Below the pieces are notes generated by a model. It was not told the origin of the DNA, ran no database searches, and worked only from the letters and a program-made list of their open reading frames with translations. From Pseudomonadota bacterium (GTDB lineage: Bacteria > UBA10199 > 2-02-FULL-44-16 > JBDRGF01), in assembly GCA_043818055.1 (NCBI GenBank), contig JBDRGF010000159.1:17623-81622 (forward strand): a stretch of 64,000 nucleotides of DNA, written 5' to 3'. Positions 41,939 through 62,696 of the stretch are shown one piece after another. The position numbers and the translations under genes are program-made. The stretch's first letter is position 1. The number at the start of each line of letters is the position of its first letter.

Positions 41939-42755
41939 TTACTTGACATAATATCCACCGGTTTTTTTGCTGCCACGGTATTCGATTTTACCTTGCTTTT
42001 TTAATTTTGCCGCCCATCTTTCGACTGTCTTTGGCGACATGCTTATTTTTTCAGCAATTTCTGAAATTCTTTTACCTGGATTGACTCTAATAAATTCCAG
42101 AAAAACATTTATTCCCTCATTTATTCCCTCATTTATTCCCTCATTTATTCCCTCACTTATTCCCTCACTTATTCCCTCATTTATTCCCTCATTTATTCCC
42201 TCACCTCTTTTTCGTAAGTGAAAAACAATGACAAATGCCCCTGCTGTCTCACTAAACTCTGGTGCAGGGTTACCATTTTCAAGAGAATAGTTATAAATCT
42301 TTTGAAAGCCTCCTCCCCAGCCTTCAATCAAACCTATCTTATGAAAAACATCTACTATCGCCTTGTTCCGGGGTATGGAACGACCTTCAGTCAGTAAATT
42401 TTCTATGTTGATTTCCTTAGGTAACAATCCGGGGCTCCATATTTCCAGCCTGTCATCAAAAATTCTGATCTGTATATTACCTGCGTCTGCATAATCACGG
42501 TGTGCAACTGCATTAATAATAGCCTCTCTTATGGCCGGTAAAGAATAGTCCCGGATCTGTATGCAGCTTTACCTTGTTGATCAAATCCTCAATCGCTCCT
42601 TTTCCAACAACCATGTTTAAAGGTCCACCGCTATCATCCAAACCTACGATCACTTTTCCACCACTCTTGTTTGCAAAGGCACCAAGGGTGACTATTACAT
42701 CTCTCCACTCCGCAAGAGAGGATTTGAGTTCCAATGTTTCGGATTCTTTATACAT
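41939..42755 (-). pseudogene. AlbA_2 (Schlafen-like DNA-binding) + wHTH regulator, disrupted; contains (NEGI)n coding repeat
   Basis: Two adjacent ORFs, 42513..42755 (AlbA_2 N-domain, ETLELKSSLAEW...FANKSGGKVIVG) and 41939..42427 (wHTH C-terminus), are separated by a frame break. 12-nt tandem repeat at about 42100-42215. Confidence 0.5.
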
Positions 42756-43479
42756 GGCTATACACCCTCATGATCTCTTGTGCATACTCAACTGCCTGTT
42801 CAGCTTCTTTTCTGGTGATTTCATGTTCGTCATCCATCCAATTTTCAGACTTCTGAAATAACTTATAAAGATATTTAAATTTTGAGGCTATATCTTTACC
42901 ATAATATTTCTCGGTCAGCGGGAGAAGCACATCTATCTTGCTTGAATATCCCTCGTTCTTCATGGCAAGTGAAGCTTGTAAGGCATGTTTTGATGCAACA
43001 AAGCAATAATCGATCACACCATTTGTAAAGCCATCCTTCAGCAATTCCTGAGCCAACTTAACTTTCCGGGATTCAAAATCTCTAGAGTCTTTAAAAAAGC
43101 CTGCATATTTAGATGAAGGAGACTCAAAACTTAACGACATATCAATATCTCCAAAGATAAGCTTTCCTTCACGCTTAGCAGCTGTATAAACAGGCAACTT
43201 TTCCTTTACGAAATCCTTCTCGCTTGCAACTAAAACAGAAAAAGCCTCTTCCTTTACAAGTTCATCTCTGATGCGATTTGCCTTTTTATTCACATTATCA
43301 ACAACCATAAGCAGATCGACATCCGAATCTTCCCTGGCACATAATTTTGCCCATGACCCATAGAGAATGGCCGCTTTAATACTTTTACTTTCAGTTAGCT
43401 TTTGCCTGATTGTTTCAATATGCGTGTCTATTGGCTGAATCATATTAATTAATGGGTTGGGGTATTTTTCTATGAGCAT
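42748..43479 (-). CDS. Fused minimal nucleotidyltransferase (MNT) - HEPN domain protein
   Basis: N-terminal ILYGSWAKLCAREDSDVDLLMVV NTase motif and a C-terminal HEPN-like helical domain. Confidence 0.65.
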   Translation of the reverse strand: MLIEKYPNPLINMIQPIDTHIETIRQKLTESKSIKAAILYGSWAKLCAREDSDVDLLMVVDNVNKKANRIRDELVKEEAFSVLVASEKDFVKEKLPVYTAAKREGKLIFGDIDMSLSFESPSSKYAGFFKDSRDFESRKVKLAQELLKDGFTNGVIDYCFVASKHALQASLAMKNEGYSSKIDVLLPLTEKYYGKDIASKFKYLYKLFQKSENWMDDEHEITRKEAEQAVEYAQEIMRVYSHV

Positions 43480-43503
43480 TTTTTAATAGATAGTGGTCAG
43501 TCT

Positions 43504-43572
43504 GAAACTAGAAGCCAGAAGCAAGAAGCTAGAAATCAGAGGCCAGAAAATAGAAGTTAGAAACTAGAGGTC
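43504..43572. repeat. Heptanucleotide tandem array block A, about 9 units (AAGYYAG/AGAAGYY)
   Basis: gaaactag aagccag aagcaag aagctag aaatcag aggccag aaaatag aagttag aaactag, period 7. Confidence 0.8.
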
Positions 43573-43771
43573 ATAAATCCTTGATTCCTGCAATTTTTAG
43601 CAGGGCTTTTTGCAAACCGACTTTCAAAGGCCTATTGCCATGTATCGGCAAACTTATTCGTTCTCTCTATCCATCCTTCATAAATATATGATGGCTGCCG
43701 TGTATCCTCTTTAACATCCAGCCGTTATTTTCCAACAATTCTACCATTTCTTTACCTGATAGGGCTTTCAT
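43571..43771 (-). pseudogene. hicA: hicA toxin gene interrupted by an in-frame TAG
   Basis: MKALSGKEMVELLENNGWMLKRIHGSHHIFMKDG*RERISLPIHGNRPLKVGLQKALLKIAGIKDL. Amber codon at 43667..43669. ATGA overlap with the hicB stop. Confidence 0.6.
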
Positions 43772-43971
43772 ACAGCAATTTCCAGCACTTCTGCTTTATC
43801 ATGATTCTCTCCCTCATCAACATCGACAGACAAACAACCTTCCACTGCCTCGTATATATTACTTAGCAACTCTTCCCAAGTGTCGCCTTGCGTGATACAG
43901 CCCGGAACAGCCGGCACTTCCGCCCAATATCCACCCTCCTCCGCTTTGTGAACGACTACCTTTATCTTCAT
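43768..43971 (-). CDS. hicB: HicB-family antitoxin (UPF0150-like)
   Basis: MKIKVVVHKAEEGGYWAEVPAVPGCITQGDTWEELLSNIYEAVEGCL, the canonical HicB N-domain. Confidence 0.7.
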   Translation of the reverse strand: MKIKVVVHKAEEGGYWAEVPAVPGCITQGDTWEELLSNIYEAVEGCLSVDVDEGENHDKAEVLEIAV

Positions 43972-44009
43972 TATCTCACCCTCCCCCTGTTTATCATTTT
44001 TATTTTGTG

Positions 44010-44135
44010 GTTTTCATCAAAATTTTGAATACACCTTCATGATCTCTTGTGCATATTTGACCGATTGTTCAACTTCGTTTCTTTATATTTCATCTTCCGC
44101 ATCCAGCCAATTCTCAGACTTCTGATATAACTCAT
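44010..44135 (-). pseudogene. Degraded duplicate of the 3' end of the MNT-HEPN gene
   Basis: About 75% nucleotide identity to 42757..42870. Encodes ...YAQEIMKVYSKF* compared with ...YAQEIMRVYSHV*. Confidence 0.35.
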
Positions 44136-44142
44136 ATAGATT

Positions 44143-44205
44143 CAGAGGCTTGAAGTCAGAAGCTAGAAGTCAGAAGTCAGAAGCTAGAGGTCAGAGGGGG
44201 GAAGT
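44143..44205. repeat. Heptanucleotide tandem array block B (AGAAGYY)
   Basis: agaggct tgaagtc agaagct agaagtc agaagtc agaagct agaggtc agagggg. Confidence 0.8.
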
Positions 44206-44630
44206 TGCTATCGTTCCCTTTTTGTAATTGACTTTGACTTCAAATCGTCTGAAGAAGTCCAATCCTATCAGCACCTTTATTCCCCAAGATTGGTCGAAGT
44301 GCGAGACATAGAATTGCATCAAACTTATGCCATCTGCCATCCCTGGTTGTGACAAAAACCGGAAGAAATATGTAGCGCGCGCTCGTATCAAAAGTGGTGA
44401 TGTTCGGCATGAGCTCTCCATCCGCCGGGGAATTTGCTTTCGCCGGTGTACTTAAAAGTGCAATCCTTATCAGGTGCCGGAGGACTAAAAACATCCTGAT
44501 CGTTCTTTGAGTGTCGTTCAACAATACCGGAGATGAGCCGGCCGGATTCATCTTCATCACAATCAACAATCATAAGCCACTCATCCGGAAAGGCCTTCTT
44601 CATCTCTTCCCAACTCATTTTCTGTCCCAT
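44191..44630 (-). pseudogene. Frameshifted small gene; the C-terminal part resembles a retropepsin-like (clan AA) aspartic protease
   Basis: Three overlapping ORFs in three frames. One ends ...WGIKVLIGLDFFRRFEVKVNYKKGTI, which is like the C-terminal motif of bacterial retropepsin-like proteases. Confidence 0.3.
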
Positions 44631-44667
44631 GATTTTCTCCCAATGGAAATTTATATTGCGATATACA

Positions 44668-44782
44668 AAAGCAAGAAGTCAGAGGCAAGAAGTCAGAAGT
44701 TAGAAGTTAGAGGTCAGAAACAAGAAGTCAGAAGTCAGAAGTCAGAAGCAAGAAGCTAGGAGTCAGGGGCCGGAAGTCAACC
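44668..44782. repeat. Heptanucleotide tandem array block C, about 16 units (AGYYAGA)
   Basis: agcaaga agtcaga ggcaaga agtcaga agttaga agttaga ggtcaga aacaaga agtcaga agtcaga agtcaga agcaaga agctagg agtcagg. Confidence 0.8.
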
Positions 44783-44833
44783 GTAGGTTTGCCAGTTGTT
44801 TAAGAGTCCCCATAACATTTTGCCGATTTCATC

Positions 44834-45151
44834 TTAGTTTTCATAACATCCTTGGTAAGTTGCCTCATCGATATATTTGCACTTGCTTGCGAAATCAAGC
44901 CATACCTTAACGTCTTCGCATGAACCGATAGAATCCAACAGATGCCTTTTAAATACATTTTCAAATCGCCTTTTGGCCCAACATTCTGCAATATTGGCTG
45001 GAATTGATCTCGACGATCTTCTCATTTGATCTATCAAACTATAGCGTTCTTCCTTTGGAAATTTACCGGTCAATCTGAATATACCCATCGCAGATTCGAA
45101 AGATTTCGTAAAAACGACCAAATCTTTACATGTTTTTATCTTCTCTTGCAT
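44834..45151 (-). CDS. Four-helix-bundle protein (23S rRNA intervening-sequence protein family)
   Basis: MQEKIKTCKDLVVFTKSFESAMGIFRLTGKFPKEERYSLIDQMRRSSRSIPANIAEC, the typical family signature. Confidence 0.8.
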   Translation of the reverse strand: MQEKIKTCKDLVVFTKSFESAMGIFRLTGKFPKEERYSLIDQMRRSSRSIPANIAECWAKRRFENVFKRHLLDSIGSCEDVKVWLDFASKCKYIDEATYQGCYEN

Positions 45152-45200
45152 CTGGCTTCTTGCTTCTGACTTCTTGCTTCTTGCCTCTGGCTTCTGCGAC
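45152..45200. repeat. Heptanucleotide tandem array block D (inverted orientation) plus adjacent duplicated 5'-end fragment of the MNT-HEPN gene (to about 45250)
   Basis: gcttcttgcttctgacttcttgcttcttgcctctggcttctg is the reverse complement of AGAAGYY units. 45195-45250 is about 85% identical to 43390-43450. Confidence 0.7.
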
Positions 45201-45284
45201 TTTCAGTTAGCTTTTATCTAATTGTTTCAATATGCGTATCTATTGGCTGTCAGTTGAAAAAAATAAATTACAGATGTTGGTTTA

Positions 45285-46626
45285 TCAGTCCTTTTTTATC
45301 ACTTTCCAGTGACCACCCTTATCGGGGCCAACACGTTCTATAAATCCTTTTAATTTTAACTTCTTCAGGTTTTCCTCAATTTTCCTCTGTGAAATTCCAA
45401 CAAACGTTGCCAGTTCATTTGCAGAAACATGAGGTTTTTCCCTAATTGTTTTGAGAATTTTAGCCTGGTTTCCCGTTACCTTTTCTCCGACCTTTTCTCC
45501 GACCTTTTCTCCGACCTTTTTAGACCTATTATAAACAGTGACCAAAAACCCCCCACCCTGTACATCAAACTTTGGAGAAGGAAGTTTTCTATCGGCAAAT
45601 GAATCAAATACGCGTTTTATTCCGGAACCATATTTTTCCATTATCTTCAGCTCTTTAAACATTGTTGCAATCTGCTTGTTTCTTATCTCCGATTTATAAT
45701 TCCCTTTCACCAGCTGTTCAACAGTAAGCGGTCCCATCAATTTTCCTGGATTGTAAAATTCCATTCGATCACTAAGACGAACTTGAGTAGTCGCGATGAA
45801 CGACCATGTTTATTACCAGCTCTCTAAGTGCATCCAAAGGATAATCCCAAACCTCATCTCTTTGTGGCTTTCCAGTTATAACATATGCCTTATTGATGTG
45901 CTTGGTTATAAAATGCATCACTTCATCAACTTCTGAAAGCACATCCGTTCTAACCGTTGTACCATCTTTGATAAGTGTCTCCGTCTGAAATCTGCCCAGT
46001 TCAATCGTGCTTAATATCGACCACTCTTTCATAAAAAGTAGAAAACACGCCTTCGATATTTTTTTATCACGCAACAACTCATACTTTTTTAGAAACGTAA
46101 TAGGGTCATCCGTAATTGGATATTCTCTGTTTCTATTTGCTCTTTCAATGAACAGCACAACCTTATCCAGAGAAATATCATTTATTGTATGATTGCTGTC
46201 CTCATAATAATCCCAGCTAGAATTAAATGTTTTGAGATGCATATTGACGACTTCATTTATATTCAGAAGATGATTAGAATTTTTGACCCGTTTGTAATAT
46301 CTGCCTCTGAACGCCACCGGTTTTATCGGATATTCAATCGTATTTATAACAGCTATCAATTTTCCACCGCGTTTTTTAACATCGACGTCAGGAATGATTG
46401 ATGGGTTGGTTTTGTTCTTGATTTCATTTATCCAATTCTGAACAGTTTCTTTGCCTATTTTAACACCTTCCACTTTGCCTTTATCATTCACGCCGATAAC
46501 AACACTCCCGCCTTTCGCATTAGCAAAAGCCACAAGCGTCTCTATTACCTCATTTCCAAAATTGAGTTTAAATTCCTGTTTGTCTGATTCTTTGTATTTC
46601 ATTCTACACTGTCCACGGTAGCCCAA
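45285..46626 (-). pseudogene. AlbA_2 + HATPase_c_4-like + wHTH 'divergent AAA / Schlafen-like' regulator, split by a frameshift; contains (KVGE)n 12-nt coding repeat
   Basis: ORFs 45772..46626 (AlbA_2, FANAKGGSVVIGV) and 45285..45764 (wHTH C-terminus) lie in different frames. ccgaccttttct x3-4 at about 45480-45530. Confidence 0.55.
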
Positions 46627-46733
46627 CCCCCAGCAAGACTTATTTGTAAACCCACCGCTGATTTCCTAACAATTTTCCTTCCAAATCACATGGCATTAAA
46701 AGTGCCCACAAAAACACCAACTTTTAGGATTCG

Positions 46734-47678
46734 TTATACATGGTTCAAGAAAGTTGCGACATCTGGGGAAATCGTTACTCCATTATCCTGAAGCAGTTTG
46801 ACGCTACCCCAACCTCCTACGTCGCTCCAGTCGAATGCGGCTTTTACGACGGCTACTTGCTGGGATTTTTCTAGCAGGGCGTAATCGACTGATATCGATG
46901 GTGACTGTTCAAAGCATCTTTTGAGAAAATCTCCGCTATCCGCATCTATGTTGATAGATTCATAAACTTCTGTGGCATGAGTTTTGAGTTCACTTAAAAA
47001 TTTACTCGCTCTCCAGACGAAAATGCCGGCGTTCCAGAGATATCCCTCATCTATATATGTCTTTGCCAATTCTTCGTTTGGTTTTTCTGTAAAATTTTTG
47101 ACTGGCGACCAGTCTCCTTCATGCGCTGGAGAAATATAGCCATAGTCCACTGATGGCCAGGTTGGATTGATGCCTAATGTTACCAGATAATCTTTTTGTG
47201 CGATTTCTATCGCTTGTTTAATAACTTCATGAAAAAGATTCTCCTGCGGGATATAGTGATCGGACGGCACGCAACAGATGATCGATTCCCCGTCCTGCAT
47301 ATGAATAATTTTTGTAGCATAAGATAATGCGGGAGCAGTATTTTTTTTGCATGGTTCTGCTATGATATTTTTCTCAGGCAACTCGGGAATCTGTTCTTTC
47401 ACAAGATCGACATATTTTTCATTTGTGGAGATATAAATTTTCTCGCATGCAAACAATGGCAACATCCTATCAAACGTCTGACGAATGAAGGTTTTCTCAC
47501 CGATGAAGTTTAGAAATTGTTTTGGCTTTTCAGGCGTTGAAAGTGGATAAAACCTTGTCCCCTCGCCACCTGCCATGATAACTGCGTATAGATTTTTTGA
47601 GTGATTGTGATTCAAACGAATACTCCTGATTTCTCTACATTTTCCATATTGTGTACCAAAAATTTTTTGTTCTTTCAT
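46734..47678 (-). CDS. manC: Mannose-1-phosphate guanylyltransferase (no PMI domain)
   Basis: LYAVIMAGGEGTRFYPLSTPEKPKQFL motif. 314 aa. Confidence 0.75.
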   Translation of the reverse strand: MKEQKIFGTQYGKCREIRSIRLNHNHSKNLYAVIMAGGEGTRFYPLSTPEKPKQFLNFIGEKTFIRQTFDRMLPLFACEKIYISTNEKYVDLVKEQIPELPEKNIIAEPCKKNTAPALSYATKIIHMQDGESIICCVPSDHYIPQENLFHEVIKQAIEIAQKDYLVTLGINPTWPSVDYGYISPAHEGDWSPVKNFTEKPNEELAKTYIDEGYLWNAGIFVWRASKFLSELKTHATEVYESINIDADSGDFLKRCFEQSPSISVDYALLEKSQQVAVVKAAFDWSDVGGWGSVKLLQDNGVTISPDVATFLNHV

Positions 47679-47889
47679 CTATTTCCCGACTTCTTCTGAC
47701 AACTATTTTAATCGAACGAACACCTGTATTCTCTAATAGCCACCTCACAGCTTTTACATCTCCAAAATTCAGGATTCTCTCTATGATAAAAAACTTATAT
47801 TTTTCGAACTGCAAATCCTTAAACTCGCAGTCCCAGAAATATTTCGCAAACGATTTTGGGAGTTTTATATTTTTTTTCGATTTAGTCAT
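47635..47889 (-). CDS. Hypothetical small protein (84 aa)
   Basis: ORF only. Overlaps the manC start by 44 nt. No recognised domain. Confidence 0.3.
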   Translation of the reverse strand: MTKSKKNIKLPKSFAKYFWDCEFKDLQFEKYKFFIIERILNFGDVKAVRWLLENTGVRSIKIVVRRSREIDERTKNFWYTIWKM

Positions 47890-47984
47890 GTGATGACGCG
47901 TTTCTGATGTTATTAACGCTGAAGAGTGATTAAGAGTTTGATTAATTCAGTCCTTCGACCCCCTCCACCTCCCCCTTATAAGAG

Positions 47985-48062
47985 GCTGTTGCTAAAATGT
48001 AGGGGCACCCCCCCCGTGGTTGCCCTCTTATAAGGGCAGGCACGGGGGCCTGCCCCTACAAA
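47985..48062. repeat. Inverted pair of REP-like GC-rich hairpins (...GCCCCTACA family)
   Basis: tgtaggggcaccccccccgtggttgccc ... gggcaggcacgggggcctgcccctacaaaaac. Confidence 0.7.
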
Positions 48063-48095
48063 AACATCAAAAAACAGACTTCGGCAATTGGCTAT

Positions 48096-48518
48096 TCATT
48101 TTTTATTTACCAGGCTGTTTAAAAGACTCTTAATTTGGCTTATCTGTTTTTTATATACCATTATAGTCTGCCATTTGAGATCGAGATAGCGATGTACGAG
48201 CCTGTTTCGATGAAAGGCAAGTTGCCCAAGTGCCTGGGCTTGTTTTGCGCTCAATCCCGCATTTTTGGCCGCGAGAGATAAAGTTTGCGCATAGCTATCG
48301 GCGGAAATTCCTTTTTCAGCTAAAACAGTCCCGCAAATTTCTATCAGGGCGTTCAATATATTTTCCACTGTTCTGTCGATCAGCTTTTGTTTTTTTGTAT
48401 CAGTCCGATATTCTTCCCACGTAATCCTGGAGTATTCTGCATCAAACTCGCACATCTCCTGCGATATAAACTGAATCGATTCTGCTATTCTCCCCTTTGC
48501 ATAAGTATATTCAGGCAT
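48096..48518 (-). CDS. HepT-like HEPN toxin (DUF86)
   Basis: AFHRNRLVHRYLDL contains the Rx4-6H HEPN motif. 140 aa. Confidence 0.7.
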   Translation of the reverse strand: MPEYTYAKGRIAESIQFISQEMCEFDAEYSRITWEEYRTDTKKQKLIDRTVENILNALIEICGTVLAEKGISADSYAQTLSLAAKNAGLSAKQAQALGQLAFHRNRLVHRYLDLKWQTIMVYKKQISQIKSLLNSLVNKK

Positions 48519-48954
48519 TTTTGATTCTCCTTAAGTTTACCTTAGAAGCAAGAATCTGCCAGGCAGTCCCAAAAAGGCAAAAATCTTCCATCTGAGCTAT
48601 TGATTCAAACAAATAGCGATCACACAGATCCTTATTTTTAACATATACTGGGATTCCTTTTACAGAGGCATTGTAATAAACCATTGGATGATCAAATTCC
48701 TTTTTTAATCTTAGAATGTTCACTTCCAATCCAAGCAATTCACTTAAATCGACACTGATCTTTCCAATAACATCGAGCATTTTCTCCTCATCAGTATGTT
48801 CATCGGAAAACAGAACAGCTATATCGACATCGGATATCCTTCTCTGCTTCCCATGCGCCCAGGAACCATACAAAAAGACCAAATCTAATTTGAGTTTTTT
48901 TGAAACTCTTTTAAAATATTTTTCTAAGATTTTTTTTAACTTTGAGGAGTCCAT
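48511..48954 (-). CDS. MntA-like minimal nucleotidyltransferase antitoxin (start set at the internal Met; the track ORF extends to 49083)
   Basis: LVFLYGSWAHGKQRRISDVDIAVLF NTase GS...D.D motif. Start at 48954 overlaps the epimerase stop (TAATG). Confidence 0.65.
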   Translation of the reverse strand: MDSSKLKKILEKYFKRVSKKLKLDLVFLYGSWAHGKQRRISDVDIAVLFSDEHTDEEKMLDVIGKISVDLSELLGLEVNILRLKKEFDHPMVYYNASVKGIPVYVKNKDLCDRYLFESIAQMEDFCLFGTAWQILASKVNLRRIKNA

Positions 48955-49961
48955 TATATGTTCAACTCCTTCACAAACTCCCAATTCTCTCTGGTCCAAT
49001 CGACTGTTTTTTTGAGGCCATCTATAAAGGAAACTTTTGGTGACCAGTCGAGCATCTTTTTCGATTTTTCTATTGATGCCCATGTCGCTTTCATATCCTC
49101 TTTCGGGAATGGTAGACGATCAATTTTGAGTTTCGCGCCGGTCGCTCCCTCAATAAATGATATCATTTCAACTAGTTCATGAGGAGCATCGCCTCCCAGA
49201 TTGAATATCTCATAGCCAACATTTTTAAGCGCCTTTATCGTGCCATCGGCTATATCATCCACATATGTGAAATCACGCTTCTGAGTTCCATCCCCCATCA
49301 GCTGGATATGATTTCCTTCAAAAGCCCACTTTATAAAACGAAATATACTCATATCGGGTCGCCCAGCAGGTCCATAGACTGTGAAGTACCTTAAAATTGA
49401 GACATCGATATCGTAAAGATAATGATAGCTGTATGCAATTCCCTCCGCTCCACCTTTTGACGCTGCGTATGGTGATATCGGCGTTGTCGTTGGTATCGAT
49501 TCATCGAAGGGCATCTCTTTTCCGGCATAAAGGCTCGATGTTGAGGCCAGGACGAATTTTTTAACATCGTGTTTTTTACAGAGTCCCAACAAATTAGCGG
49601 TGCCAAGCATGTTTGTAGTGATATAAACTTGAGGATTATCGAGGCTTGCCCTTACACCCGCTCTGGCCGCAAGATTTATCACCGCGTCAAATTTATGCTC
49701 CGAGAAAATTCTTTCCAAGGCATCTTTGTCTTCGATATCGAGCTTTATAAATTTAAAATTGTTAAACTTTGACAGGAAATTTTCAAGTCGCCACTCTTTC
49801 AACCGGACATCGTAGTAGTCATTGAGATTATCGATACCCACGACCTCCACACCCAACTCACACAATCTCTTAGCCACATGAGAACCGATAAACCCAGCAA
49901 CCCCTGTGACAAGAATTTTCTTAGTATTTTGAGTCAATTTTTTAATATCGTTTACCATCAT
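48954..49961 (-). CDS. NAD-dependent epimerase, UDP-glucuronate 4-epimerase-like
   Basis: KILVTGVAGFIGSHVAKRL...YAASKGGAEG. Paired with ugd in the locus. Confidence 0.7.
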   Translation of the reverse strand: MMVNDIKKLTQNTKKILVTGVAGFIGSHVAKRLCELGVEVVGIDNLNDYYDVRLKEWRLENFLSKFNNFKFIKLDIEDKDALERIFSEHKFDAVINLAARAGVRASLDNPQVYITTNMLGTANLLGLCKKHDVKKFVLASTSSLYAGKEMPFDESIPTTTPISPYAASKGGAEGIAYSYHYLYDIDVSILRYFTVYGPAGRPDMSIFRFIKWAFEGNHIQLMGDGTQKRDFTYVDDIADGTIKALKNVGYEIFNLGGDAPHELVEMISFIEGATGAKLKIDRLPFPKEDMKATWASIEKSKKMLDWSPKVSFIDGLKKTVDWTRENWEFVKELNI

Positions 49962-55572: not shown

Positions 55573-55695
55573 AATTTCCTCCTTGCCGCATTGAAGTGCT
55601 ATCTGCAGAGAAAGTCAAGAGAATATATCGCCAAAAGCTCTATTTTCAACGTTTTGCGAGCAATAAAAAAATGCCCAATTAACAATACCAAAATT

Positions 55696-55828
55696 CAATA
55701 TCCAATATCCAATATCCAATATCCAATATCCAATATCCAATATCCAATATCCAATATCCAATATCCAATATCCAATATTCAGTTAACAATATCCAATATC
55801 CAATATTCAATACACAATACTCAATTAA
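55696..55828. repeat. (CAATATC)n heptanucleotide microsatellite, about 12 near-perfect plus about 7 degenerate units, in a divergent promoter region
   Basis: caatatccaatatccaatatcc... seen directly in the sequence. Between the minus gene start at 55572 and the plus gene start at 55866. Confidence 0.9.
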
Positions 55829-57006: not shown

Positions 57007-57103
57007 ATAACACCTCCAAGTAAGCTTGATGAACCAGTTTTATGCGATTGTCAACTCTCTAGGAAAAAGTGTAGGAGTGTAGAAGTGTAGGAGTGTTTAA
57101 GTT

Positions 57104-59076: not shown

Positions 59077-61311
59077 CTATTTTATACAAGCCGCTAATAA
59101 TTTCTCCGGTGTTATCGGCAGGTCGCGGATACGCACACCGATTGCATCATAAACCGCATTTGCGATCGCCGGAGCGGGGCCGTCCATCGGCAACTCCCCC
59201 AATCCCTTGCAGCCGCCGGCGCTGTATGAATATAAATTCTCTATAAAATGGACGTGCATCTTCGGGGCATCTAGCGCTGTCGGTATGAGATATGTCTGCA
59301 TGCGATCCGTTTTCACGTGCCCTTTATCCATGACAAAATTTTCGAGCAGCGCGTATCCGACGGCCTGAAGAGCGCCGCCCTCCACCTGTCCGGAAGCCAG
59401 CATCGGATTGACCACCTTTCCCACATCCTGGACGAGATGGAGATTGGTGAGTTTCACTTCAAATGTATTCATGTCGACTTCAACCTCTGCTATATTGGCT
59501 CCCCACGCAAATACGGGATAGGCATCCCCTTTGTAATTATGTTCATCCCATACGATACCGGGTGGAACCTGATACTGACGAATGACCTCGGTGGGACCGT
59601 TACTATCATAAAATTCCCGCGCGATTTCGATAAATCCTTTTTTAACTGGTGCAAAGCTCTCAATTCTATTCCTCAACTCCAATGCCGCATCGTACAACAC
59701 CTTTCCTATGACCATCGTCGTCCGCGATGCAACAGTCGGACCGCTATTTGGAACGACAGATGTATCCGGGGTTGCGACCTTAATATTTTCGATTGAGATA
59801 GCAAGTGCATCGGCGACTATCTGGGTCAAAACAGTATGAGAGCCCTGTCCCATCTCGGTCGATGCTGTTAGAATTGTAACTGAGCCATCCTTTTCCAAAC
59901 GTACACCGGCCTTCGATTTCAGACGATCCTCGCCGCTGCCTGTAAATCCGGCGCCGTGCAGAAACAACGAAATTCCGATGCCGCGCCTTTTCGAAGAATT
60001 CCTTTTCCATTTTGAATCGGGTTTGGACTTCTTTTCAAATTCGCTCATCGACGACGCCTTCTCCAGGACTTCCGATGCTGACACGCTCTCCTTGAGCCTT
60101 TGCCCCGTGGTGGTCTCGTCGTTTAACTTGAGGAGGTTTTTCCTGCGAAATTCCAGAGGTGACATTTTAAGCTCATTTGCTATCTCATCGATGTGCGACT
60201 CCAGCGCGAAGATCGACTGCGGCGCGCCAAAGCCTCTGAATGCGCCGTTTGGTGATGTGTTGGTGGCAAATGTTAAAGCATGTGCACTGAAATTTTCGAT
60301 CTTATAGGCGCCCCCCGAATGCAACACGCCCCTGGACAACACAACCGGGGAGAGAGACATATACGCGCCACCATCCAGAAAGAATCTTATCTCCATCGCC
60401 TTGATCGTTCCGTCGCTTAAAACGCCGGTCTTGTAATGCGCCTTTGCCGGATGGCGCTTCGTCGAGACGATTATATCCTCATTGCGATCGTAGATAATCT
60501 TGATGGGACGGCGTGCCTTGTATGAAAGGATGGCTGCATAACCTGCGATGACAGATGGATAATCCTCCTTGCCGCCAAACGCCCCACCGACAACGGCCTG
60601 ACGAACGGCGATGCGCGCATCGTCCCAGCCAAAAAGATATTTCATGGCATCGTGAACGTAATACGGACACTGAAGCGAACCGATTATCTCCATCACGCCA
60701 TCTTTACGAAAATCGGCGATCACGCTCTGAGGTTCGATATATAAGTGTTCTTGGTGACCGACGCTGTAATCACCCTCGATGATCAGATCGGAATTTTTGA
60801 ATCCTGCGTCAACATCACCCTTTACGATATCATAGGAGGCAAAGAGATTATCGTCGCCATATAAAACCCTCTTTTTCGAAAGCGACTCCTCCATCGTGAG
60901 GACTGGATCGATTGCCTCAAATTTGACTTCGACCCTCTTTCTCGCCTCGAGCGCCATCTCCCTTGTGGGTGCGGCAATCAGACATATCCCCTCACCGACA
61001 TAACGAAACTCAGCCGTAGCAAGCAGCGGCATATCTTTTTCTATCATCGCCACACAGTTTTTTCCGGGAATATCATCGGCAGTTGCCACAACGACCTTAG
61101 ACCAATCAAAGGAGGGATCGAAATCTACAGATGTGATGCGCCCAGCTGGGGCCTTCGCCCTCACAACAGCGCCATGCCACATGCCGGGAAGCACGATATC
61201 GTCGACATATTTTGCTATTCCAAGCGCTTTATCATGAGCATCAACACGAGGTGTATTTTGTCCTATAAAATTCATCACGTTATTTTTGCTGGAAGCACTG
61301 TAAAAAGACAA
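59077..61311 (-). CDS. Molybdopterin-binding large subunit of the XDH/aldehyde oxidoreductase family
   Basis: 744 aa. Ald_Xan_dh N-terminal a/b hammerhead region and MoCo-binding domain patterns (GGAFGGK, GQG...E). Confidence 0.85.
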   Translation of the reverse strand: MSFYSASSKNNVMNFIGQNTPRVDAHDKALGIAKYVDDIVLPGMWHGAVVRAKAPAGRITSVDFDPSFDWSKVVVATADDIPGKNCVAMIEKDMPLLATAEFRYVGEGICLIAAPTREMALEARKRVEVKFEAIDPVLTMEESLSKKRVLYGDDNLFASYDIVKGDVDAGFKNSDLIIEGDYSVGHQEHLYIEPQSVIADFRKDGVMEIIGSLQCPYYVHDAMKYLFGWDDARIAVRQAVVGGAFGGKEDYPSVIAGYAAILSYKARRPIKIIYDRNEDIIVSTKRHPAKAHYKTGVLSDGTIKAMEIRFFLDGGAYMSLSPVVLSRGVLHSGGAYKIENFSAHALTFATNTSPNGAFRGFGAPQSIFALESHIDEIANELKMSPLEFRRKNLLKLNDETTTGQRLKESVSASEVLEKASSMSEFEKKSKPDSKWKRNSSKRRGIGISLFLHGAGFTGSGEDRLKSKAGVRLEKDGSVTILTASTEMGQGSHTVLTQIVADALAISIENIKVATPDTSVVPNSGPTVASRTTMVIGKVLYDAALELRNRIESFAPVKKGFIEIAREFYDSNGPTEVIRQYQVPPGIVWDEHNYKGDAYPVFAWGANIAEVEVDMNTFEVKLTNLHLVQDVGKVVNPMLASGQVEGGALQAVGYALLENFVMDKGHVKTDRMQTYLIPTALDAPKMHVHFIENLYSYSAGGCKGLGELPMDGPAPAIANAVYDAIGVRIRDLPITPEKLLAACIK

Positions 61312-61408
61312 GACAAAAAACGTGAAGCCTAAAAACGTGAAGCGTCCACGCGTGACGCGTGAAGCGAAAAAAAAGGAGCAGCATTACTGCGCCACCTTAT
61401 ATTCTCAA

Positions 61409-62656: not shown

Positions 62657-62696
62657 ACTTAAACACTCAAACACTCCTACACTTAAACACTCACAC

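Follow-up and report, generated by a model that had tools for sequence, protein, structure and literature searches.

The 64-kb stretch of DNA analysed here (the window, from a host labelled Pseudomonadota) carries, in the region 43.5-45.2 kb, four degenerate tandem arrays with a period of 7 nt and the unit AGAAGYN (arrays 1 to 4, Table 1). Arrays 3 and 4 enclose a gene for a small four-helix-bundle (FHB) protein, and we consider it probable that they are the two arms of a module which resembles the intervening sequences (IVSs) of 23S rRNA but lies outside rRNA, and whose paired stem loops the gene out of the transcript. The locus as a whole is best filed as such an IVS-like FHB module together with two solo arms (arrays 1 and 2), set in a decaying toxin-antitoxin islet. 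An earlier, sequence-only reading of the window had placed all four arrays between small genes, as possible recombination hotspots or scars, and had listed the FHB gene as one neighbour among others; arrays 3 and 4 are not free-standing between unrelated cassettes but flank that gene as complementary arms.

The FHB open reading frame (ORF) matches PF05635 (Pfam, E = 1.3e-26) and TIGR02436 (NCBIfam, 79.6 bits against a cut-off of 24). Alignment with homologues of 120-125 aa reveals that the gene has been shortened by a TAA in place of a Tyr codon; the ancestral ORF comprises 124 aa, its frame running on as ..DEIGKMLWGLLNNWQTYG to a TGA at 44780-44778, and once restored it matches PF05635 with E = 1.3e-30, covering model positions 1-105 of 106. 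The ancestral stop codon is itself part of the last unit of array 3, which starts at that stop. On the other side of the gene, array 4 reads on the minus strand as the units AGAAGCC, AGAGGCA, AGAAGCA, AGAAGTC, AGAAGCA, AGAAGCC, AGATGCA and AGAGAAG, is purine-rich on the mRNA strand and holds the FHB start codon (45151-45149) within its seventh unit, AGATGCA. Array 4, gene and array 3 make up a unit of ~530 nt. The repeat finder reports the two arms as an inverted pair of 52 nt (44702-44753 and 45144-45195) with 83% complementarity, and in the predicted RNA fold of the minus strand of 44655-45205 (551 nt) arm pairs with arm and the ORF is enclosed, the minimum free energy and centroid structures being in agreement. 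The predicted energy of -165 kcal/mol compares with -136 +/- 6.5 kcal/mol for shuffled sequence (z = -4.54).

The same build recurs at close homologues from unrelated contigs, namely L479 (86% identity), L480-482 (69%; between ugd, coding for UDP-glucose dehydrogenase, and a UDP-GlcNAc 2-epimerase gene) and L483 (74%). In each of these, a sense AGAAGYN array runs from the preceding gene's stop codon and carries the FHB start, an inverted array lies at or within ~12 nt of the FHB stop, and the whole unit measures ~530 nt. The complementary stretches extend over 57 nt (82%) in L479, 46 nt (78%) in L480-482 and 30 nt (80%) in L483, and the L479 module folds with z = -6.7. A sense array with an embedded ATG is found in L479, L480, L483 and also L494, and in all four the module sits exactly between the upstream stop and the start region of the next gene, within rows of co-oriented genes. 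On L494, an Elusimicrobiota contig, two FHB genes are present; the arms of one consist of AAGAAGC units and those of the other of GTGTWAT units, and each downstream arm is the reverse complement of its upstream counterpart. In a further module homologous to that of the window (P0036, between cusA-like and outer-membrane factor genes), assemblies coding for an identical FHB protein have 6, 8, 8, 8, 9, 14 and 15 units in the upstream arm, the differences being whole multiples of 7 nt; since the unit number varies from 6 to 15, the arms are live simple sequence repeats (SSRs).

Sampling was widened by a tblastn search of plasmids, which gave 35 FHB-bearing records, mostly cyanobacterial; 14 of them were fetched for taxonomic spread, irrespective of flank content. 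The cyanobacterial plasmid copies use the units GGGAGCA, GCAGGGGAG, AGCAGGGG, AGGGAAG, ACAGGTG, AAGGCAG, AGGAGATA, AGGGTGT and others. Cultivable strains that carry such a module include Nostoc punctiforme PCC 73102 (pNPUN02, 213.7-214.4 kb), Nostoc PCC 7120 and Picosynechococcus PCC 7003 (between cas10 and cmr3). Altogether, short-period arrays occupy both flanks of 20 of the 25 FHB genes examined, with at least 11 distinct unit sequences among them. We called a pair inverted if the downstream unit, once reverse-complemented, matches some rotation of its upstream counterpart with no more than two mismatches, and scored complementarity at the level of the array because arms with differing unit numbers are not unambiguously alignable. 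By unit match 16 of the 25 are inverted, and L497 and L501 are so by eye (18 in total). The period of the upstream array is mostly 7, with 8 in four cases and 9 in one; L497 has a period of 7 upstream and 8 downstream. Furthermore, the upstream and downstream flanks of FHB genes form a predicted duplex with a median energy of -72.7 kcal/mol (20 genes), compared with -38.3 kcal/mol for 37 neighbours taken from these loci (Mann-Whitney p = 6.7e-5). To judge from these comparisons, the conserved property is complementarity together with short-period repetition, while the sequence itself varies. In viral contigs, only one locus with an FHB relative was found. FHB genes interspersed in cas operons were reported earlier (PMC3936711); three copies in our set (L502 2291-2972, L505 2134-2911 and L508 2456-2885) lie within cas operons and have short-period arrays at their flanks, the contexts being cas6-FHB-cas4 (type I-D) and cas10-FHB-cmr3 (type III-B). 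In the Pseudanabaena cas-operon copy the arrays are direct, with ~15 units of AAAAGCT ahead of the gene and ~14 of AAAAGCC behind it.

PF05635 is named for ORFs inside 23S rRNA IVSs, and IVSs with such an S23p or four-helix-bundle ORF occur in Coxiella, Leptospira and Brucella. A bona fide IVS is also present among our plasmid records, as Rfam shows the FHB ORF of Azospirillum lipoferum (L504) to be surrounded by a complete 23S rRNA gene; the terminal stem of this IVS is built from the heptamers CAGAGGA, CGGATGA, CAGAGGA and CGGAGGA and their complement (fold z = -10.1). This copy serves as a positive control, since the Rfam search that detects LSU rRNA around it finds no rRNA in the window, where it reports one tRNA only and no family matching the arrays or the FHB module. 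In Coxiella burnetii, RNase III cuts the IVS in its terminal stem of 28 bp (Warrier et al., PMC4990558), and an AGAAGA motif followed by 2-3 tandem GACAGAT heptamers directly precedes the S23p start, the heptamer number differing among strains and the 5' cleavage site lying at the first repeat (PMC4990558). The window module shares with these elements a small PF05635 ORF within terminal inverted repeats for which a long stem is predicted, tandem heptamers immediately ahead of the ORF (in Coxiella their number varies among strains) that form the arms (as in Azospirillum), and an element size of ~430-530 nt. It differs from them in that it lies between protein genes or their remnants and not in helix 45 (or helix 25) of 23S rRNA, that its arms are longer (8 and 16 units, ~50 bp of pairing, vs 28 bp in Coxiella) and that extra solo arms are found nearby; moreover, experiments have demonstrated excision by RNase III for rRNA IVSs, whereas for the window module it is inferred. 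At the level of sequence, the window module is an IVS-type element in every testable feature except location.

We propose that the module would be transcribed by read-through together with its neighbours, all of which lie on the minus strand. The arms would then pair into a stem of ~50 bp, so that the FHB ORF is looped out of the transcript and its start codon buried. Such looping would bring the upstream stop near to the downstream start and limit the harm of the insertion, and the stem would probably be cut by RNase III, by analogy with rRNA IVSs. Arms made of tandem repeats could pair in many registers and still pair after gain or loss of units, which would explain why they consist of short repeats and vary in length.

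Direct reading of the sequence, TRF and the repeat finder, from which the arrays were called, agree on the four heptamer arrays that the sequence-only reading had located, TRF giving a period of 7 and 5.6-13.3 copies. All four lie in non-coding DNA between ORFs and consist of head-to-tail units, as in heptanucleotide SSRs and short tandemly repeated repetitive (STRR) sequences. The pattern AGAAGYYAGAAGYY, with at most two mismatches, has 40 matches in the window vs 5.0 +/- 2.3 expected, a number reached in 0 of 100 shuffles; with this excess, and with 31 of the 40 matches falling inside the arrays, the AGAAGYN unit is restricted to 1.7 kb of the 64 kb. Comparison of 43 units shows positions 1-3 to be near-invariant (A in 39, G in 42 and A in 41), while positions 6-7 vary (non-uniformity p = 2e-9); changes in the core comprise 21 transitions vs 3 others. 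An independent contig from ENA (L122) is identical to the window across the whole of array 3 and into array 2, which argues against an assembly artefact; it is the only independent contig that spans array 3, and this one contig shows the same unit number as the window. Because AGAAGYN is confined to 1.7 kb while other arrays of the window use other units (CCAATAT, repeated 19 times, among them), the best explanation is common descent of the four arrays as one family of slippage-prone heptamer repeats.

Could the arrays be generic heptanucleotide SSRs (long SSRs or STRRs) that arose by replication slippage in tolerated intergenic space, without function and near the FHB gene and the gene fragments by accident? 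Much of what we found at large is compatible with this. Heptamers are described as the most abundant class of long SSR in most bacterial genomes, with polymerase slippage as their proposed cause (PMC4679880, PMC4692102). In our own survey of arrays of at least 4 units, AGAAGYN arrays occur in the genomes of more than 119 species from many phyla, and at 119 genome loci period 7 dominates (271 arrays; period 6, 7 arrays; period 8, 14 arrays). Among these 271, 128 are built from units other than AGAAGYN, and the window itself holds unrelated arrays. A protein family recurring beside the arrays was sought by all-against-all BLASTP of 368 neighbouring ORFs from the 119 loci and no recurrent cluster emerged. 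Neither is AGAAG a privileged core: in viral contigs, the permuted cores AAGGAYN (at least 120 loci) and GAGAAYN (118) are, in a coarse comparison, about as frequent as AGAAGYN (at least 120), and the spread of AGAAGYN across phyla is therefore probably convergent. What generic slippage does not account for is that FHB start and stop lie within complementary arrays across homologues with different units, that FHB flanks pair far better than those of neighbouring genes, and that the four arrays within 1.7 kb have one common unit which is absent from the other 62 kb. We thus regard this explanation as unlikely for the arrays of the window.

With respect to the known repeats, STRRs (Mazel 1990) and the excess of heptamers (Mrazek 2007) are covered here as cited in PMC4692102 and PMC4679880, from which GGGAATC of Xanthomonas and GGGGAYT of Nostoc may be named as examples. 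STRRs and long heptanucleotide SSRs resemble our arrays in being intergenic, of period 7, in both orientations, sometimes in inverted pairs and, as in the homologous P0036 module, of different length between relatives, but they are described without a link to a gene family, whereas here two arrays act as putative arms of an FHB module. STRR-like arrays do flank FHB genes on cyanobacterial plasmids; in the strict sense, the STRR label belongs to cyanobacterial hosts, unlike the host of the window, for which a database protein of 100% identity carries a Pseudomonadota label. As to position, 40 of the 70 arrays with a same-strand upstream gene at the survey loci (L001-L119) begin no more than 15 nt from its stop, while array ends come within this distance of a downstream start in only 4 of 64; the stop codon is often provided by the first repeat unit. 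In a Gemmatimonadota metagenome-assembled genome (L024 3333-4052), a gene for a 198-aa membrane protein, not of the FHB family, lies between inverted AGAAGTG arrays, one immediately after its stop and one 6 nt ahead of its start, and arm-like inverted arrays thus also occur outside the FHB family.

Arrays 1 and 2 have the unit and orientation of the 3' arm (array 3), and each starts at the stop of the gene that precedes it in transcription. Array 1 fills the spacer from the stop of the hicA pseudogene (TGA 43573-43571, which overlaps its last unit) to the start of the MNT-HEPN gene (43479). The gene-proximal end of array 2 (ACTTCCCCCCTCTGAC..) matches that of array 3 (ACTTCCGGCCCCTGAC..), both being unusually G/C-rich, in 45 of 54 nt without gaps (83%), and its other end adjoins a gene fragment (fragment A). 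Complementarity to array 4 amounts to 83% for array 3, 76% for array 2 and 79% for array 1. Arrays 1 and 2 are most simply seen, on these grounds, as leftover or duplicated 3' arms. They may date from the insertion of one or several modules into a paralogue of the MNT-HEPN gene and from recombination inside it, and they may serve as alternative pairing partners for array 4 on a read-through transcript.

Remnants of this paralogue are indeed present, as the repeat finder aligns 42760-42872 with 44029-44141 (81% identity over 113 nt) and 43387-43437 with 45199-45249 (92% over 51 nt), and the two duplicated fragments noted in the sequence-only reading are real. Their description has to be amended: the first (fragment A), taken for a copy of the 3' end of the present MNT-HEPN gene, is homologous to that end but keeps its own C-terminus and stop (..EIMKVYSKF before the stop vs ..VYSHV in the intact protein) and is thus a paralogue remnant, and the second (fragment B), taken for a copy of the 5' end, is MNT-HEPN-derived but corresponds to an internal piece (~codons 15-31) without start codon. 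Two of the three truncation points of the paralogue lie no more than 3 nt from an array boundary; at the third, the far end of fragment B, there is no array.

These junctions bear on the proposal, made in the sequence-only reading, that the arrays are recombination hotspots or scars, i.e., sites at which homologous exchange, inversion or slippage deletion of DNA shuffles accessory-gene cassettes. By a rough estimate (8 boundaries in ~2.6 kb), the coincidence of two truncation points with array boundaries has a chance of ~1e-3; arrays 2 and 3 have a non-canonical end in common, an array follows each gene block in a cassette-like manner, arm length is variable in the homologous P0036 module, and a role in rearrangement has been proposed for long TAACTGA arrays (MacGregor, PMC4679880). 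Nevertheless, the insertion of a module bounded by arms accounts for the junctions equally well, all fragments and genes have one orientation and so give no sign of inversion between inverted arrays, and the ORFs examined (~41.9-56.4 kb) yielded neither a recombinase nor an integrase gene. Nor did the contigs from Logan, JGI and ENA contain any alternative arrangement of the locus, all of them matching the window exactly. A metagenome scan with the MNT-HEPN protein found only one contig, of 1.2 kb, and look-ups of exact proteins, several of which had no record, yielded short contigs, identical to the window, that terminate in or close to the arrays. The hotspot-or-scar proposal is thus partly supported by the truncation points and variable arms but misses the main structure; nothing found shows the arrays to drive cassette shuffling, and we hold a main role as DNA-level hotspots to be quite unlikely. 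Two independent short-read assemblies (L120 and L121, matching 42382-43572) stop precisely where array 1 has its outer end and, on the other side, at 42382, inside the internally deleted AlbA_2 gene; the latter break may mark strain variation at the AlbA_2 deletion.

The arrays might also be read by a protein, the FHB pentamer or a heptad-reading regulator, and act as operators or RNA-protein scaffolds and not through pairing of arms. In favour of this, the 5-nt core AGARG is conserved with positions 6-7 free, and the start of translation falls within the 5' arm. Nucleic-acid binding is a property of Avd-like proteins, and the omega repressor of pSM19035, which may offer an analogy, recognises contiguous heptads. 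RNA-binding proteins have furthermore been proposed for the TAACTGA repeats of Beggiatoaceae, Cyanobacteria and Bacteroidetes (MacGregor 2015, PMC4679880), which resemble AGAAGYN arrays as short heptamer arrays in distant phyla, in transcribed intergenic spacers and near translation signals. TAACTGA repeats, however, lie just upstream of the start codons of many unrelated genes, whereas AGAAGYN arrays mostly run from the preceding stop codon, and those of the window form complementary arms. Above all, units are wholly different between FHB modules, even between the two in L494, while the FHB proteins stay similar; as complementarity and not unit sequence is conserved, this argues against sequence-specific recognition, and we deem protein-binding sites very unlikely.

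Several observations weigh against the IVS-like module itself. Transcription and stem formation are, like RNase III cleavage, all inferred, and the proposal does not account for how arms come to have differing units and yet stay complementary. Two of the 25 FHB genes have direct instead of inverted arrays (L498 and L502), a second arm went undetected in a few modules (L014, L101 and L509), and the sample is small and rich in cyanobacteria, though picked irrespective of flank content. In the survey, a hidden Markov model built from 120 FHB homologues placed an FHB gene near only 2 of the 119 AGAAGYN genome loci and gave no match among the 120 viral AGAAGYN loci listed; AGAAGYN arrays in general are thus not markers of FHB genes, and the link runs from FHB gene to arrays only. 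The near-equal frequency of permuted-core arrays in viral contigs points in the same direction. Arrays 1 and 2 have no adjoining FHB gene and their assignment as derived arms rests on unit, orientation and one common end, for which 83% over 54 nt is only slightly more than any in-phase alignment of such arrays would give. Finally, the FHB gene is a pseudogene in the window and the island is decaying, so that the module may no longer function.

All island genes lie on the minus strand (Table 1). A promoter and terminator scan of the island gave counts no different from those in shuffled sequence. In transcription order, the guanylyltransferase-like gene and the disrupted AlbA_2 gene are followed by fragment B, array 4, the FHB gene, array 3, the 80-aa and 76-aa ORFs, array 2 and fragment A, and then by hicB, the hicA pseudogene, array 1, the MNT-HEPN gene, the second AlbA_2-type gene and dxs. 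The sequence-only reading was right in naming hicBA and the FHB gene as neighbours of the arrays, except that hicA is a pseudogene with an in-frame stop and the FHB gene carries a nonsense mutation. The protease-like pseudogene that it also listed has no support in Pfam: the 76-aa ORF (44191-44421) gives no match even at E = 5, and neither this nor the 80-aa ORF matches any Pfam or NCBIfam family.

Table 1. Arrays, gene remnants and genes of the island, with positions in the window.
Feature	Position	Strand	Remarks
Array 1	43503-43572	+	10 degenerate units; solo, 3'-type arm (putative)
Array 2	44144-44206	+	9 units; solo, 3'-type arm (putative)
Array 3	44667-44785	+	16-17 units, RRCTTCT on the mRNA strand; putative 3' arm of the FHB module
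Array 4	45140-45196	- (AGAAGYN on minus strand)	8 units; putative 5' arm of the FHB module
FHB gene (PF05635 / TIGR02436, bAvd-like)	ancestral 44778-45151; present ORF 44834-45151 (105 aa)	-	Pfam, NCBIfam
Fragment A, 3' remnant of MNT-HEPN paralogue	44017-44141	-	own stop; cut 1-2 nt from array 2
Fragment B, 51-nt internal remnant of MNT-HEPN paralogue	45199-45249	-	ends 3 nt from array 4
Mannose-1-phosphate guanylyltransferase-like gene	46734-47678	-	first in transcription order
Disrupted AlbA_2 / HATPase_c_4 / winged helix-turn-helix (wHTH) gene	45285-46626	-	after guanylyltransferase-like gene
80-aa ORF, no family	44388-44630	-	between arrays 3 and 2; product also in independent assembly
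76-aa ORF, no family	44191-44421	-	overlaps 80-aa ORF; enters array 2 by five codons
hicB	43768-43971	-	HicB_lk_antitox E = 2.9e-10 (Pfam)
hicA pseudogene, in-frame stop	43571-43771	-	HicA_toxin E = 7.7e-17 with stop read through
Fused MNT-HEPN gene, intact	42748-43479	-	Pfam Polbeta/NTP_transf_2 + HEPN; NCBIfam MntA-like below cut-off
Second AlbA_2-type gene, internally deleted	41939-42755	-	precedes dxs in order

Tandem repeats adjoining toxin-antitoxin genes also bring to mind clustered regularly interspaced short palindromic repeats (CRISPR) or the RNA-antitoxin arrays of type III toxin-antitoxin systems, a possibility that we consider negligible. The units are contiguous, of period 7 and without spacers, whereas CRISPR repeats measure ~23-50 nt, and the scan of ORFs in the island and beside it found no cas gene, the sole cas-labelled match (cas_HTH/Csa3, 20.6 vs a cut-off of 60.2 bits) being to the wHTH of the 45285-45764 protein; here we concur with the sequence-only reading, which had called the arrays STRR-like and not CRISPR. 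Repeats of type III antitoxins are tens of nt long and precede a ToxN-type toxin (PMC3401426), while here the units measure 7 nt and the genes nearby code for MNT-HEPN, HicAB and FHB proteins, with no ToxN/AbiQ-type gene among the ORFs scanned. An integron cassette array was rejected as well, as no integrase was found among the ORFs examined in ~41.9-56.4 kb and the elements between genes are tandem heptamers and not imperfect palindromes of the attC type. With Avd, the accessory protein of diversity-generating retroelements (DGRs), the FHB protein shares the fold family (PF05635 / bAvd), but the DGR model DivGenRetAVD scores only 20.4 bits against a cut-off of 80, no reverse transcriptase was found among the same ORFs, and no long repeat like the template and variable repeats of DGRs occurs in 41.8-46.8 kb.

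The whole island is bracketed by a 27-nt imperfect direct repeat (42731-42757 and 46717-46743, 85%). At its right copy, the guanylyltransferase-like gene ends in ..NHV and a stop, followed by a dead AlbA_2 start of five codons (MYNES and a stop); at the left copy, the end of the MNT-HEPN gene (..SHV and a stop) overlaps the real AlbA_2 start (MYKESE..). These repeat copies and gene ends suggest that ~4 kb were inserted, or duplicated in, at a junction of guanylyltransferase-like and AlbA_2 genes. The two AlbA_2 / HATPase_c_4 / winged-HTH genes that flank the island (41939-42755 and 45285-46626) are divergent paralogues (25-39% aa identity), both disrupted, and both have a 12-nt tandem repeat in the linker preceding the HTH, with 8 copies coding for (GINE)n at 42106-42203 and 3.6 copies coding for (GEKV)n at 45478-45520. 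A second toxin-antitoxin cluster at 47635-49083 (DUF6922, a 140-aa ORF at 48096-48518 and an MNT nucleotidyltransferase gene) lies among nucleotide-sugar genes and has no flanking heptamer arrays. The FHB homologue of L480 is likewise located among polysaccharide genes, near MNT-type nucleotidyltransferase genes, one of them with an NTase_sub_bind domain.

As for the other arrays of the window, ~19 near-perfect CCAATAT heptamers occupy 55683-55825, in an intergenic stretch whose two neighbours, a small multidrug-export gene and a 252-aa ORF that has no family, are divergently oriented; the array is unrelated in sequence to those of AGAAGYN, and no FHB gene is close by. Two copies of an array with a period of 8 nt (AGTGTAGG-like) lie in opposite orientations at 57068-57096 and 62657-62693, both ending in ..GAGTGTTTAAGTT when read on the sense strand of the gene beside them. 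One directly precedes a start codon; the other follows a stop codon and is itself followed by a terminator (hairpin and T-run), where it would be a transcribed array of the 3' untranslated region. A short CGTGAAG heptamer array (61336-61366) lies 25 nt upstream of the start of a 744-aa ORF (59077-61311).

Beyond this locus, we tentatively raise a broader possibility, for which the odds are somewhat below even: PF05635 genes with short-period, mostly heptameric, inverted arms might constitute widespread selfish modules, defined by structure and placed between the cistrons of host operons, and 23S rRNA IVSs might be the special case of those that landed in rRNA. Host contexts seen so far are polysaccharide, cus and cas operons and toxin-antitoxin islets. 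The arms would loop such a module out of the host transcript, and their complementarity would be kept by concerted slippage or conversion, whatever their sequence; that arm sequences are so diverse, even within one genome, argues against a sequence-specific transposase. If this is true, decayed or duplicated arms would explain part of the long-unexplained STRR and heptanucleotide arrays.

In summary, our analysis reveals an arm-gene-arm arrangement outside rRNA genes that we did not find described in the literature searched, which leaves much older work outside. Gene annotation is directly concerned, as ORFs that enter the arrays and gene starts called within them are often artefacts. To our knowledge, heptanucleotide arrays have been catalogued in bacteria for decades without an accepted function, and we likewise know of no role outside DGRs for the abundant FHB "23S IVS protein" family, which is also found in cas operons and DGRs. 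The present locus joins the two, the repeats being probable paired arms of an architecture that holds across phyla while the repeat sequence changes, and it suggests how an FHB gene can occupy an operon without breaking it.

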